From sequence record OR539218.1: a stretch of 64,000 nt of DNA. One strand, given 5' to 3'. The notes beneath the pieces were generated by a model that had not been told where the DNA came from, ran no database searches, and was given only the letters and a program-made list of their open reading frames with translations. This document shows positions 52,271 to 57,405 of this stretch, one piece after another (within the stretch, counting starts at the first letter, position 1; the number at the start of each line of letters is the position of its first letter). This DNA comes from Escherichia phage vB-Eco-KMB26. The translations under genes and the position numbers were made by a program.

Positions 52271-53239
52271 TTATTTCAGAAGAGTAACCTCAGCGATTTC
52301 TTGCCAACCGTTTTTGTCGGTCATAATAAAGTCAGCAAGATAAAGTGCAGTACGCAGTGAAACATTGCGTAAACGGTTAACATTGACTTTCATCCATGAT
52401 AATGCTTTATAAGTTTCTTCATCAGAAAGACCGCGCTTTTGCATCATGTCAGTTGAAAGAATAACATCTTCAACCCTGACCATAATTTCTTCATTAGTGT
52501 GAACACCCAAATCCAAATAAACCGAGCGGGACACTAATGCTTGTAAATGTGGAGCAAGTTTAGTACCACGGTCTAATTCGCGGTCAATGTCAACGTTTGT
52601 GATAAAAACAATCGTTCCTTTAAATTCAAACTCACGCTCAATGCCTTTTTCTTCTAAGTAAGAAGATGCGGTGCTCCAGCAGACTTTACGGGTCTCTCCA
52701 GTGTCCAGAGCAGCTTTCAGAAGATTAAGAATGTCCATATCAGAGAAAACATCCACATCATCAATCAAAAGGACAGAATTCTCTTCACGATTATTCCAAA
52801 GTTGTTCATAAAGACCGATACCGGAGATTTTACCGTTAATGCTTTTATATTCAATGTATCCATTATCATTTGCTTTATTCAAAGCTTTATCTAAAGAATA
52901 CGTTTTACCAATACCCGCCGCACCAGAGATAATTAATGAACGAATGTTTCCGTTAATAATACCATTCGTCATCATTCCCATAACATTAAATCTTTTATTA
53001 ATGCGGGTTTTCATATCTTCATATGATTCTTTAACTTCTTCAACTTTTACACCATCATATGAAATGTCTGATTTGTAAACCCAAACACCGCGACGCTTAC
53101 CGTCAATTTCAACAAAAACTTTACCATCTCCTTGTGCATCTACCGGAGCATTATCTGGGAACCATTCACCTAAGAGCTCAAAAGTTCCAGAGATTTCTTT
53201 ACCGAAGTAGATACCCTTATTGATAGTTACAGTTTTCAT
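52271..53239 (-). CDS. P-loop NTPase
   Basis: Trimmed to internal ATG (322 aa); Walker A GAAGIGKT and Walker B LLIDDVD. Confidence 0.65.
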   Translation of the reverse strand: MKTVTINKGIYFGKEISGTFELLGEWFPDNAPVDAQGDGKVFVEIDGKRRGVWVYKSDISYDGVKVEEVKESYEDMKTRINKRFNVMGMMTNGIINGNIRSLIISGAAGIGKTYSLDKALNKANDNGYIEYKSINGKISGIGLYEQLWNNREENSVLLIDDVDVFSDMDILNLLKAALDTGETRKVCWSTASSYLEEKGIEREFEFKGTIVFITNVDIDRELDRGTKLAPHLQALVSRSVYLDLGVHTNEEIMVRVEDVILSTDMMQKRGLSDEETYKALSWMKVNVNRLRNVSLRTALYLADFIMTDKNGWQEIAEVTLLK

Positions 53240-53275
53240 TTTATTCTCCAATCTCACATTTGTTTTGATAGGGTA

Positions 53276-53305
53276 ATAGTATCACACTACTACCCTTCTG
53301 TAAAC
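53276..53305 (-). promoter_or_regulatory. T4-type early promoter
   Basis: Minus strand GTTTAC, 17 bp, TACTAT. Confidence 0.55.
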
Positions 53306-53308
53306 AAT

Positions 53309-53572
53309 TTATTTTAACGTTCGCCAAATTTTTACTGCTTCACGGCGAGATACTTCTACAGCTCCAAGTTCTACAGCTTTTTGGCGTCGGCGAGCGTGTA
53401 AGTCATAATGTTTAATGCGTTTATCTTGAAACCAAGAACGTTTCATTCCTATTGCTTCTGCCATTTCATGAAGCTCTTCAATATCTCCATCAGTGAACAT
53501 ATGACAATTTTTAGTTGGATGACCGCGAAGTTTCCATCCATGATTCATTAAAACATCTACGTAAACTGTCAT
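53309..53572 (-). CDS. small basic protein
   Basis: 87-aa ORF. Confidence 0.5.
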   Translation of the reverse strand: MTVYVDVLMNHGWKLRGHPTKNCHMFTDGDIEELHEMAEAIGMKRSWFQDKRIKHYDLHARRRQKAVELGAVEVSRREAVKIWRTLK

Positions 53573-53718
53573 TGATTCTTCTCCAAATAAGTTTCGATAA
53601 TTTTCTGAGCGAGATAAACTGCATTATCTTCAGTTGCATCTTCTAAGAAACTTTCAAAACACTCTGAAATTTCTTCTGTATCAATCAACTTTTTTACTTC
53701 AATTGGTGTAATTTTCAT
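53569..53718 (-). CDS. small acidic protein
   Basis: Track ORF trimmed to MKITPIEVKK... (49 aa) so the promoter lies upstream. Confidence 0.45.
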   Translation of the reverse strand: MKITPIEVKKLIDTEEISECFESFLEDATEDNAVYLAQKIIETYLEKNQ

Positions 53719-53755
53719 TTTGTTTTTCCGTTTAAGTGTTTGTTTTGATAGTTGT

Positions 53756-53785
53756 ATAGTACCATAAAGCTTTATGCTTGTAAAC
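53756..53785 (-). promoter_or_regulatory. T4-type early promoter
   Basis: Minus strand GTTTAC, 17 bp, TACTAT. Confidence 0.55.
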
Positions 53786-53815
53786 AATTTTGTGAAAAAT
53801 TTTTGAAATAAAAAA

Positions 53816-53833
53816 GGGAGCCCGAAGGCTCCC
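53816..53833 (-). terminator. UUCG-tetraloop hairpin
   Basis: gggagcc-cgaa-ggctccc right after the stop of 53836..54849. Confidence 0.6.
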
Positions 53834-53835
53834 TA

Positions 53836-54849
53836 TCATTTATAATAACTTCGGTGGTTTTCAAGATAAACCCTCTCAAGGAAGTCATCCCAAAAACCCA
53901 TGTCTACTTTTTGCTGCATACCGTTCTTAGAAGCTTCAGTAGATGCTGCTTCTACTTGATCGACCACATCTTCCAAAAACTCTTGAACCGTTTTAAATGG
54001 ATGTTTACCCAACTTCACGTCGAGAATAAATGGAGCATCTTGGAGTGGATAAACCAAGTCACCAGTTTTGTAAATTTCCAATAGTTGGAGTCCACCACGG
54101 CAAGCATGACTCAGAGCTTTCCAGTCAATACCTTCATTGGCTTCGGCCTTACGAGCACGTTCACCGTATTCAGCATCTAATTTGTTCAGTGACTGCTTAA
54201 GCTCAATAAGAGAAAGCGTTGTCTGATATTTACGACCCAACACTGTGTAGAACGTCTGTGGGCCTGTTTTCTCATGATTATGGAACACCCATTCACAGAA
54301 TTCGTTTTCTGGAAGACGATGCTTAATATCTTCAACTTTAGTACGACGCTGCTTAATAGAACCATCTTCTTGGTAATCAACCCATTGCTCAGGGATTTGA
54401 TTAACTACTTTCAATACATCACGTAATGCAGCCAAACGAGAACCCTTAACGCCGTATTTAGAAGCTTGCTTACGGACATATCCTAAATAGGATTTCATGT
54501 TAGTCGTATAAAAACGAGAACGGTTGTCTTGAATAAACTTCCACACATCAGGCAAATCAGATTTAACCACTAGTTCAGGTGGAGTGTGAAGCATATCTAA
54601 CGCTACAGTTTCACCATCTGCTGCTAATTTAAAGAAATATTTAAGACTGTATAGTTCATGGTCAATATCATCTTTAGTGTTTTTAGATGATGTGTTGTTA
54701 GTGTTTTTACTCATGTGCTCTTTAACATTTCCGATAAGAATATCACGAGCAGGAGGAACAAAGATTTCTTTAAAATCTACATCAGATTCTGGGGTAGAAG
54801 TTCCATAAAGATGACTACCAAAATAGCTTTTCATTACTGTTTTCATCAT
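53836..54849 (-). CDS. nucleotidyltransferase-fold protein (Pol-beta-like GS...DxD motif)
   Basis: 337 aa; N-terminal FGSHLYGTSTPESDVDF fits the hG[GS]x9-13Dh[DE]h signature; possible third acidic site at DDIDHE. Confidence 0.55.
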   Translation of the reverse strand: MMKTVMKSYFGSHLYGTSTPESDVDFKEIFVPPARDILIGNVKEHMSKNTNNTSSKNTKDDIDHELYSLKYFFKLAADGETVALDMLHTPPELVVKSDLPDVWKFIQDNRSRFYTTNMKSYLGYVRKQASKYGVKGSRLAALRDVLKVVNQIPEQWVDYQEDGSIKQRRTKVEDIKHRLPENEFCEWVFHNHEKTGPQTFYTVLGRKYQTTLSLIELKQSLNKLDAEYGERARKAEANEGIDWKALSHACRGGLQLLEIYKTGDLVYPLQDAPFILDVKLGKHPFKTVQEFLEDVVDQVEAASTEASKNGMQQKVDMGFWDDFLERVYLENHRSYYK

Positions 54850-55307
54850 TCAGCCTTATATTCAATAACAGGACATACTTTAGCTTTACGAGCTTTTAAA
54901 AATTCAACGATAATCGATTTCTTGGGTTGAATAGGAGGTAAACCTTTATACGCCCTATCAATATTTTCTACGTGTAAAGCATAATCCTTTTTCCATTTAT
55001 AATCTTTATATTTTTCACGCAGTTGTGCAGGAATAACAAATGAACCGATAATAAGTAAAACAAGCAAAATGGCAAGTATAAATGCTGATGGAATAAGAGT
55101 CCATAAACTACCAAAAATAAGCCATTTCTGTATGATTTCTGCGCAGATGATAGTTAGACCTACGAGTATAGTACATCCGAAAAAAGAAACGAAAAATGTA
55201 GGGATAACAATAGACCAAAAGTATGCGCACAGCGTCTTAGGTCGTTGCCATTCATCGTTAAACAATTTGAATAATTTATAGTGCCAAGAGTTTTCATTAA
55301 TAATCAT
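54846..55307 (-). CDS. multi-pass membrane protein
   Basis: 153 aa with three predicted transmembrane helices. Confidence 0.6.
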   Translation of the reverse strand: MIINENSWHYKLFKLFNDEWQRPKTLCAYFWSIVIPTFFVSFFGCTILVGLTIICAEIIQKWLIFGSLWTLIPSAFILAILLVLLIIGSFVIPAQLREKYKDYKWKKDYALHVENIDRAYKGLPPIQPKKSIIVEFLKARKAKVCPVIEYKAE

Positions 55308-55309
55308 AA

Positions 55310-55831
55310 TTATCCTTTCATTGAAGGTGTAACAGTTGTTAAATACTTAATCATAGCTTCAGCTTCTGATTTTGATAATGAAATTTCTTCATTGTTTTGA
55401 CGAATAGAAATAAAATCCGGATGACGGTCACCACCAGCTTTTAAAACACACATATAAGTATCAGTTTCATCTTCAATATCTGAAATGATTGAAGCAGTTC
55501 CACATGAATGCGGTTTTTGATAAATCAATACAGCTTTTCTTCCGCCATTTGACTGTTCATAAACTTTTAATACATCAAACAAATCACTTCTTTTATCAAT
55601 AGCTAAAATGTTATTTTCATCTTCAATGTTAAATCCTTCGGATACTTCATAAAGTGTCACCCATAAATCGCCAATATCAATAACAGCGTTCACTTTTCCA
55701 TGACTTTCAAGAGCATGACAAATTTTCTTGATTTCGTCATAACTCATTTTAATAATATCATCTCCTTGAATAAGAAAGATGTCATTTTTAAATTCAACAC
55801 GAATTAAACCACTTCCACTTGAAATAAACAT
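55310..55831 (-). CDS. hypothetical protein (paralogue pair, member 1)
   Basis: 173 aa; C-terminus KSEAEAMIKYLTTVTPSM resembles the next ORF. Confidence 0.6.
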   Translation of the reverse strand: MFISSGSGLIRVEFKNDIFLIQGDDIIKMSYDEIKKICHALESHGKVNAVIDIGDLWVTLYEVSEGFNIEDENNILAIDKRSDLFDVLKVYEQSNGGRKAVLIYQKPHSCGTASIISDIEDETDTYMCVLKAGGDRHPDFISIRQNNEEISLSKSEAEAMIKYLTTVTPSMKG

Positions 55832-55837
55832 ATTTCC

Positions 55838-56395
55838 TCACTTTGAAATCATAGTTGGAATGACAGAATCGAGATAAGTCTTTAGCGCAATAGCTTCGTC
55901 TTTGGTAAATGTGACAATATACGATCGAAAATCATCAATTTGACGAATAGTTAAGACATCACCATCTTCATAGCATTTTGATACGTTTAAAACAGTTTCA
56001 TCATTCTGATTGCAAGCGTTAGTAATAATAGCATTGCAATTTTTGAGCCATTTTAAACTATGTTTTCTTTCATTAGAATAATAAAAATATTTAATCTTAT
56101 CTATAAAACTATCCCAATGGATAACTGATAAACACATTGACTCACTTTTAATATTAAATCCTGGGCATGAAGAATAAAAATGAATTTTGTGCTCATCATT
56201 GATGCTTACTATTTTATCAGTATAAGGATATTCAATTTGGGTTAAATGAATGATTTCACTAGGCGTAAAATATAGCATATCGTCTTCTTGTGTCAAACGA
56301 TACATATTATTTACTTTTTCTATAGCTAATTCACCAAAAAGCGGACTAACTTCTAATACTAATCGTTTCATATTGATTCTCTTCGACTCACCCAC
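55838..56395 (-). CDS. hypothetical protein (paralogue pair, member 2)
   Basis: 185 aa; C-terminus KDEAIALKTYLDSVIPTM. Confidence 0.6.
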   Translation of the reverse strand: MGESKRINMKRLVLEVSPLFGELAIEKVNNMYRLTQEDDMLYFTPSEIIHLTQIEYPYTDKIVSINDEHKIHFYSSCPGFNIKSESMCLSVIHWDSFIDKIKYFYYSNERKHSLKWLKNCNAIITNACNQNDETVLNVSKCYEDGDVLTIRQIDDFRSYIVTFTKDEAIALKTYLDSVIPTMISK

Positions 56396-56530: not shown

Positions 56531-56560
56531 ACTATATCATAATCTTGTCAACTTGTAAAC
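56531..56560 (-). promoter_or_regulatory. T4-type early promoter with 12-bp perfect inverted repeat
   Basis: Minus strand GTTTAC, 17 bp, TATAGT; ttgacaagatta/taatcttgtcaa palindrome spans the spacer. Confidence 0.55.
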
Positions 56561-57387: not shown

Positions 57388-57405
57388 AGTCTCCCGAAGG
57401 AGACT
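57388..57405 (-). terminator. UUCG-tetraloop hairpin
   Basis: agtctcc-cgaa-ggagact after the stop of 57410..57796. Confidence 0.6.

Follow-up and report, generated by a model that had tools for sequence, protein, structure and literature searches.

NrdC.11 of a T4-like phage is an RlaP-family nucleotidyltransferase with a probable role in tRNA repair

Here we analyse a nucleotidyltransferase (NTase) gene in a 64,000-nucleotide stretch (the window) of Escherichia phage vB-Eco-KMB26 (sequence record OR539218.1), which corresponds to nrdC.11 of phage T4. Among the closest described systems are the RlaP enzymes of Pseudomonas fluorescens (PfRlaP) and Pseudomonas aeruginosa (PaRlaP), which Carruthers, Fatma and Huang (bioRxiv, December 2025) found to add one or two nucleoside monophosphates (NMPs), deoxyadenosine monophosphate (dAMP) included, to the 3'-OH of RNA (PMC12776372). 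These enzymes do not act on DNA or protein, prefer Mn2+, favour the broken (3') end of a cleaved-tRNA mimic and, where a tRNA had lost a nucleotide, improve its aminoacylation after repair (PMC12776372). On this basis, the authors propose that RlaP is an antidote to RloC-like nucleases, whose cleavage of tRNA is followed by the removal of a nucleotide (PMC12776372). The tRNA-repair idea was formulated earlier, by Burroughs and Aravind (2016), as represented in papers that cite them, and by Iyer et al. (2021), before it was taken up by Carruthers et al. (2025). Iyer et al. (2021) also reported that RlaP is distributed among jumbo phages much as RNA ligases are.

The gene that we compare with these systems is the following:

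53836..54849, minus strand: NTase, the NrdC.11 orthologue; a 337-amino-acid open reading frame (ORF) for an RlaP-family (PF10127) Pol-beta nucleotidyltransferase.

This gene is not new: it is T4 nrdC.11, already catalogued as a nucleotidyltransferase and already assigned to the RlaP family in the literature. A comparative paper of 2006 assigned NrdC.11 to COG3541 (nucleotidyltransferase) and NrdC.10, the ATPase encoded nearby, to the AAA ATPases (PMC1524935), and Carruthers et al. list T4 NrdC.11 as a PF10127 member in cluster 5 of their sequence similarity network (SSN; PMC12776372). A sequence-only reading of this DNA had not recognised the protein as a characterised T4 enzyme, which is literally true and overlooks the identity of the gene. 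T4 NrdC.11 (NP_049709, 'uncharacterized 38.9 kDa protein in the nrdC-mobD region') shares the nucleotidyltransferase annotation and is identical to the window protein at 331 of 336 residues (99%), the two differing by five substitutions; its annotated start is the second ATG, at 54846, which gives 336 amino acids. It also lies, as in the window, between nrdC.10 and mobD.1-type genes. The 3.6 kb around the NTase locus is 99.8% identical to Escherichia phage vB_EcoM-fFiEco06 (Tequatrovirus), hundreds of T4-like genomes match it, and the window is from a Tequatrovirus.

Membership of NrdC.11 in the RlaP family is very secure. The protein matches PF10127 at 2.4e-11 with 44.3 bits (cut-off 23), over residues 7-135 only, and a precomputed PF10127 match is present in every listed homologue; in PHROGs it belongs to phrog_388 'nucleotidyltransferase' (8e-137). 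When a profile of the NTase clade was aligned with the canonical 266-amino-acid bacterial RlaP using hhalign, the first ~140 residues aligned at a probability of 95% (E 2.6e-8), with pairing of the GS and DxD motifs and of the third aspartate, D63 of the NTase with the invariant D83 of canonical RlaP. The motif region of the window protein, residues 10-26, reads FGSHLYGTSTPESDVDF. In an alignment of 125 homologues that are 24-99% identical to the window protein (numbered on the 337-amino-acid ORF), G11, S12, D23 and D25 are invariant, D63 is retained in 122 of 125 sequences, and D61 and D63 are both at least 97% conserved. A basic and aromatic set, consisting of Y124, Q128, K135, R138, R231, K244, H248 and R251, is invariant or nearly so. 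We found no second RlaP in the window, which has one RlaP-like gene only.

The predicted structure agrees with this assignment. The AlphaFold2 (AF2) model of the NTase has a predicted local distance difference test score (pLDDT) of 91.5 and comprises an N-terminal NTase sheet (residues 3-68), helical segments, a beta domain inserted at ~155-209 and, towards the C-terminus, long helices (214-336), the last of which match HEPN-like bundles in structure searches. This architecture is consistent with that described for the PfRlaP crystal structure, in which an NTase domain and a C-terminal helical domain form a cleft and the terminal helix packs back. The structural neighbours of the model are HalB, 3c18, kanamycin NTase (KNTase), LinB, GlnE, DrrA and HEPN-type helical domains; the NTases among them are of the minimal and aminoglycoside nucleotidyltransferase (ANT) types. 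A search of the PDB by sequence, with both the NTase protein and the 125-sequence profile, returned no chain at E up to 10. The sequence-only reading had called the protein a Pol-beta-superfamily nucleotidyltransferase and had set an NTase fold in structure prediction beforehand as a test; both the Pfam score, nearly twice the cut-off, and the confident model, with its NTase sheet and NTase neighbours, bear it out.

In comparison with the Pseudomonas enzymes, NrdC.11 has in common the PF10127 match, the set of GS, DxD and third aspartate, and, in its predicted structure, an NTase domain followed by one or more helical domains with a C-terminal helix. The proposed role is also alike, namely the restoration of lost nucleotides before RNA ligation. 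In contrast, the Pseudomonas RlaPs belong to SSN cluster 1a, while NrdC.11 falls in cluster 5, is longer, carries the inserted beta domain and is not encoded beside RtcB/RtcA.

The genomic company kept by cellular relatives of NrdC.11 points to RNA repair. We surveyed 80 bacterial and archaeal loci with full-length relatives of the NTase (34-54% identical), 79 of which had analysable neighbours, over a range of 4 kb. RNA-repair genes were found within this range at 32 of the 79 loci. A second, canonical RlaP lies immediately downstream of the NTase relative at 24 loci, and the relative is accompanied by Pnkp (with kinase, phosphatase and T4-Rnl1-type ligase domains) at 6, by RtcB at 6, by Hen1 at 5 and by Ro60-vWA-like genes at 5. 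These bacterial 'long' RlaP paralogues, for example those of Asticcacaulis, Nitrosospira and Desulfobacterales (loci L138, L151 and L119), match NrdC.11 over the full length at 34-41% identity and share its length class and motifs; in cells they correspond to the phage NrdC.11 clade. They differ from it in that they usually precede a second RlaP of the canonical 266-amino-acid type and are linked to Pnkp, Hen1, RtcB or Ro60-like genes.

A side observation concerns the tandem arrangement itself. Pairs of a long (~300-330 amino acids) and a canonical 266-amino-acid RlaP occur at L107:6001-7708, L138:2088-7802, L151:2077-7790 and L119:1558-9161 and at 20 more bacterial loci, and they adjoin Hen1-Pnkp or Ro60-vWA/RtcB. 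Each of the two paralogues may have a substrate or nucleotide specificity of its own.

In the phage lineage, the partners expected of a repair enzyme exist but lie at a distance. The closest phage relative encodes pseT (Pnk), rnlA (Rnl1) and rnlB (Rnl2), 50-80 kb from NrdC.11. Counts of homologues in phage records, sorted by genus label, were as follows:

Escherichia phage records: NrdC.11 640, Rnl1 638, NrdC.10 557, membrane protein 512.
Klebsiella phage records: NrdC.11 286, Rnl1 287, NrdC.10 149, membrane protein 138.
Shigella phage records: NrdC.11 83, Rnl1 83, NrdC.10 76, membrane protein 76.
Aeromonas phage records: NrdC.11 75, Rnl1 77, NrdC.10 48, membrane protein 11.
Acinetobacter phage records: NrdC.11 69, Rnl1 69, NrdC.10 72, membrane protein not among the matches listed.
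Enterobacter phage records: NrdC.11 56, Rnl1 56, NrdC.10 36, membrane protein 35.

The counts of NrdC.11 and Rnl1 are almost equal, while those of NrdC.10 and of the membrane protein encoded next to the NTase do not match them. Since these are counts by genus label rather than by record, and carry no correction for phylogeny, the agreement is only consistent with a link between NrdC.11 and Rnl1.

We consider it probable, by analogy with the characterised family members, that NrdC.11 extends RNA 3'-OH ends by one or two nucleotides and that it does so for tRNA repair, acting together with Pnk and with Rnl1 or Rnl2 to counter anticodon nucleases that excise nucleotides. In the mechanism that we propose, NrdC.11 would be made early, from the end of an early transcription unit closed by a strong terminator. 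Its active site would be formed by G11-S12 and the carboxylates D23, D25 and D63 with a divalent metal (Mn2+ in characterised relatives), and would catalyse the untemplated transfer of one or two NMPs from nucleoside triphosphates (NTPs) to the RNA 3'-OH. In this manner the enzyme would replace nucleotides that RloC-type anticodon nucleases of the host had removed from tRNAs of the host or the phage. The phage Pnk (PseT) and either RNA ligase 1 or RNA ligase 2, whose genes lie elsewhere in the genome, would then reseal functional tRNA. Of the activities suggested by the sequence-only reading, the tagging of RNA comes closest to what the evidence supports. The nrdC.11-mobD.3 block can be deleted in T4 (PMC9825161), and the dispensability of nrdC.11 in the laboratory is as expected for a counter-defence function.

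Several points weigh against this proposal. We infer the RNA 3'-end activity of NrdC.11 from the Pseudomonas enzymes, and likewise the role against nucleotide-excising tRNases; the addition of one or two NMPs to RNA 3'-OH, stimulated by Mn2+, has been shown for the Pseudomonas enzymes only. The repair role of RlaP is itself a proposal, made in a preprint that also sets out the difficulties its authors see with it (PMC12776372). Canonical RlaP aligns with the N-terminal 130-150 residues of the NTase only, and because the C-terminal half, including the beta domain at ~155-209, is specific to the clade, the choice of substrate could differ. In addition, phage NrdC.11 is not adjacent to an RNA ligase or Pnk gene, and the agreement between the NrdC.11 and Rnl1 counts may reflect the shared ancestry of Straboviridae only.

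In distant phages we found no RNA-repair genes near NrdC.11, and the neighbours there are variable (NUDIX/NadR-like, nicotinamide phosphoribosyltransferase (NAMPT), SPFH, cytosine methylase, vWA). Aeromonas-type T4-like loci (L053:8782-9840 and L062:12471-13934) have genes of NAD-salvage type near NrdC.11, which encode a 352-amino-acid NUDIX-containing protein annotated as a cytidyltransferase and a nicotinamide phosphoribosyltransferase. Further neighbours in distant T4-like phages are an SPFH/Band-7 protein, a C5 cytosine methylase and a vWA protein.

The same chemistry could serve another purpose, in which case NrdC.11 would be an RNA 3'-tailing enzyme that tags mRNA or rRNA of the host for degradation in the course of host shut-off, repairs tRNA 3'-CCA ends or modifies phage transcripts. 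The family chemistry is not intrinsically specific to repair, as it acts on any RNA 3'-OH with little NTP specificity and labels rRNA- and tRNA-sized species (PMC12776372); besides, phage NrdC.11 is unlinked to ligase genes and sits in an early unit alongside genes of host-takeover type. Nonetheless, the placement of bacterial relatives in Pnkp/Hen1 and RtcB repair operons, together with the preference of characterised RlaPs for the 3' end of a cleaved-tRNA mimic, speaks against such purposes, and we regard them as unlikely.

A second alternative is that the NTase works with its neighbours, as implied by the sequence-only reading, which had placed it between an ATPase and a membrane protein and among early promoters of its own. 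The features on which this depends are listed below:

54846..55307, minus strand: membrane protein, 153 amino acids; phrog_944 'membrane protein' at 9e-50.
52271..53239, minus strand: ATPase, the NrdC.10 orthologue; 322 amino acids, ATG start at 53239, GGAG before the start.
53815..53834, minus strand: intrinsic terminator directly 3' of the NTase stop; AGGGAGCC-TTCG-GGCTCCCT, then TTTTTT.
53756..53784, minus strand: early-type promoter from the promoter scan (GTTTACA, 17 nucleotides, TACTAT), ahead of a small ORF and the DUF4031 gene.
53309..53787, minus strand: DUF4031 cassette; a small ORF (phrog_6888) and an 87-amino-acid DUF4031 protein (gene 53309-53572).
53276..53304, minus strand: early-type promoter (GTTTACA, 17 nucleotides, TACTAT, with TG), before NrdC.10.
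56531..56559, minus strand: early-type promoter (GTTTACA, 17 nucleotides, TATAGT; 10/12 matches, with TG).

All three ORFs lie where that reading had put them, on the minus strand. Homologues in phage records, down to ~30% identity, number 1564 for the NTase, 1312 for the ATPase and 929 for the membrane protein, so that these ORFs are real genes and not chance; NCBIfam and PADLOC scans gave nothing useful for any of the three.

The hydropathy of the 153-amino-acid protein shows two long hydrophobic blocks, at ~25-66 and 62-98. Its membrane nature, as originally predicted, therefore stands, while the three helices assigned to it are better given as two to three transmembrane helices. It has no Pfam, NCBIfam or PADLOC match.

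The ATPase is identical to T4 NrdC.10 at 312 of 316 residues (99%). Its Walker A (GAAGIGKT, 106-113) and Walker B (LLIDDVD) motifs are invariant or nearly so among 50 homologues, which also conserve DD160-161, a sensor-1-like T214-N215 and S237-R238-S239 (SRS). An AF2 model (pLDDT 89.7) matched the AAA+ modules of Hda, RFC, ORC/Cdc6, RuvB and dynein at ~2e-5 in Foldseek. The P-loop ATPase of the sequence-only reading is thus upheld, and NrdC.10 is a generic AAA+ ATPase whose core has the expected motifs; because its Pfam matches are all below the gathering scores, it cannot be assigned to a specific AAA+ subfamily. As separate observations, residues ~1-61 of NrdC.10 are confidently predicted to form an all-beta domain N-terminal to the AAA+ core, and jumbo phages of the K64-1, BF17 and ECO103 4-12-1 types have homologues without roughly the first 78 residues.

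The transcription signals divide these genes. The terminator at 53834-53815 is strong, with an 8-bp stem containing 6 GC pairs in the terminator scan. The promoter scan was a consensus match only, and the early-type promoters that it found resemble the T4 early-promoter consensus. The promoter at 56559-56531 is the probable start of a unit comprising mobD.2, y05I-185, y05I-173, the membrane protein and NrdC.11; the genes downstream of it are tightly packed, and on these sequence features we infer their co-transcription. The positions of the terminator and promoters place the NTase and the membrane protein in one early unit, which ends with the NTase gene, and put NrdC.10 in a different unit. 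'Flanked by' an ATPase is a loose description, with the terminator (53834-53815), a promoter (53784-53756), the small ORF, the DUF4031 gene and another promoter (53304-53276) in between, and although early-type promoters are indeed nearby, none is directly upstream of the NTase, the start of which shares the sequence ATGATGA with the stop codon of the membrane gene.

The functional module composed of ATPase, NTase and membrane protein has two arguments in its favour: Tequatrovirus, Dhakavirus-type, Klebsiella/Enterobacter and Acinetobacter T4-like phages repeatedly show the gene order membrane protein, NrdC.11, NrdC.10, and the stop of the membrane gene overlaps the start of the NTase. Straboviridae genomes are broadly syntenic, however, and conserved gene order alone is for that reason weak evidence of a module. 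Among 78 viral loci with NrdC.11 taken from IMG/VR, this gene order is kept in Tevenvirinae-type and Acinetobacter T4-like phages, but NrdC.10 lies within 10 kb of NrdC.11 at only 36 and is missing nearby at 42. A transmembrane protein of at least 90 amino acids is encoded within 1.3 kb upstream at 44 of the 78, directly adjacent at only 16, and T4-type loci have no membrane gene at all. T4 itself retains NrdC.11 and NrdC.10 at 99% identity, yet has mobD in place of the membrane gene. Furthermore, a terminator, two promoters and an inserted cassette separate NrdC.11 from NrdC.10; no homologue of NrdC.10 or of the membrane protein was found beside the relatives of the NTase at the 80 bacterial and archaeal loci; and the Klebsiella phage counts differ, at 286 for NrdC.11 against 149 and 138 for the other two. 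On transcription signals, T4 gene order and the locus survey we reject the three-gene module, which we hold to be very unlikely. The survey, and the transcription signals that separate NrdC.11 from NrdC.10, instead argue for synteny rather than a functional module, with NrdC.10 and the membrane protein as accessory genes of T4-like phages that have roles of their own and are not parts of an NTase system.

Two readings that would take NrdC.11 away from RNA ends are both highly improbable. The first, that it is a nucleotidylyl transferase acting on a small molecule or protein in the manner of ANT/KNTase, LinB, GlnE or DrrA, draws on the structural neighbours of the model; these matches are weaker than those to HalB and 3c18 and reflect mainly the shared core, the characterised RlaPs modify neither proteins nor DNA, and both the conserved basic residues of the cleft and the RNA-repair neighbourhoods point to RNA. 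The second takes NrdC.11 for a HalB-like synthase of short (deoxy)oligonucleotides, which would hold Hailong-type DNA-gated channels shut by acting as a decoy, or would regulate the adjacent membrane protein in a HalA/HalB-like pair. HalB is the best structural neighbour of the NTase model, at 15% identity and a template modelling (TM) score of 0.26-0.39. This similarity is modest, is unaccompanied by a sequence-level match to any PDB chain, and probably heads the list only because the structure library is without RlaP. T4, moreover, lacks the membrane partner, and the bacterial relatives lie in RNA-repair operons and not beside membrane effectors.

Hailong HalB (PDB 9dbh, 9dbj) is a defence NTase that synthesises oligodeoxyadenylate and has 217 amino acids, against 337 in NrdC.11. 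Its priming uses a tyrosine hydroxyl. This tyrosine is reportedly C-terminal (Tan et al. 2025). The NrdC.11 clade is without the conserved C-terminal priming tyrosine of HalB, and its genomic associations differ. The NTase ends in YYK, and HalB-like protein priming through this terminal YY was considered and rejected, as the YY is conserved in close relatives only in the alignment. A broader version, in which NrdC.11-type NTases as a group are HalB-like template-independent oligonucleotide synthases rather than RNA-repair enzymes, with a product that would mimic the inhibitory Hailong DNA signal or gate the co-translated 153-amino-acid membrane protein, can likewise point to HalB as the best structural neighbour and to the translational coupling of the membrane gene to the NTase in many T4-like phages; we give it a minimal chance.

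Phages encode enzymes that manipulate immune nucleotides, and the generic GS...DxD motif of the Pol-beta core is common to NrdC.11 and the CD-NTase, cGAS and OAS enzymes (SMODS PF18144, Mab-21, OAS1_C); the sequence-only reading had named signalling nucleotides first among its options. The chance that NrdC.11 is a cyclic-nucleotide or oligonucleotide signalling or anti-signalling NTase of this type is close to nil, given that the likeness is confined to the superfamily level, with no match at the level of family sequence or fold and no CBASS-type effector context: the Pfam search at E up to 0.01 gave no second NTase family (SMODS, Mab-21, OAS1_C and NTP_transf_2 were absent), PADLOC gave no match, no cGAS, CD-NTase or OAS chain was in the top 50 or 60 structural matches of the model, and within the NTase clan RlaP forms a family separate from SMODS and OAS (PMC10400998).

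Some further observations concern the surroundings of NrdC.11. The early unit of the NTase also contains, upstream, two tandem paralogues of the T4 y05I/MobD.1 family (PF24449 and PF24448, 'putative transcription factor' domains), at 55310-55831 and 55838-56395 on the minus strand. T4 has the HNH homing endonuclease gene mobD (L002:14430-15209) in place of the membrane gene and the second y05I paralogue of the window (54846-55831); apparently a mobD insertion replaced these two genes, or the reverse took place. The protein of the DUF4031 cassette matches PF13223 at 8e-22 and phrog_4887. This cassette, located between NrdC.11 and NrdC.10 in the window, is missing from the T4 map; DUF4031 occupies another place, or is not present, in other T4-like phages. 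In three phage loci a copy with 95% protein identity lies just upstream of NrdC.10 while the NrdC.11 of the same loci is only 68-69% identical, which suggests horizontal movement of the cassette. A second strong hairpin terminator, at 57388-57405 on the minus strand (AGTCTCC-TTCG-GGAGACT, then a T run), lies downstream of an rI.-1-like gene and has the TTCG tetraloop in common with the terminator that follows NrdC.11. Finally, the names given to these genes in GenBank are not a guide to their products. Many NrdC.x ORFs of T4-like records, those for the NTase and the ATPase included, are named 'thioredoxin', MobD.x ORFs are named 'molybdopterin-guanine dinucleotide biosynthesis protein MobD', and one record names the NTase 'HNH homing endonuclease'; these labels are name-propagation errors, not functions.

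Our findings identify the NTase of the window as the product of an ordinary, annotated T4 accessory gene and not as part of a new signalling or anti-defence system. If the proposed role in tRNA repair is correct, NrdC.11 would be the third enzyme of the classic T4 tRNA-repair pathway, alongside Pnk and Rnl1, and would allow the phage to defeat RloC-type nucleases, whose excision of a nucleotide makes simple religation useless.

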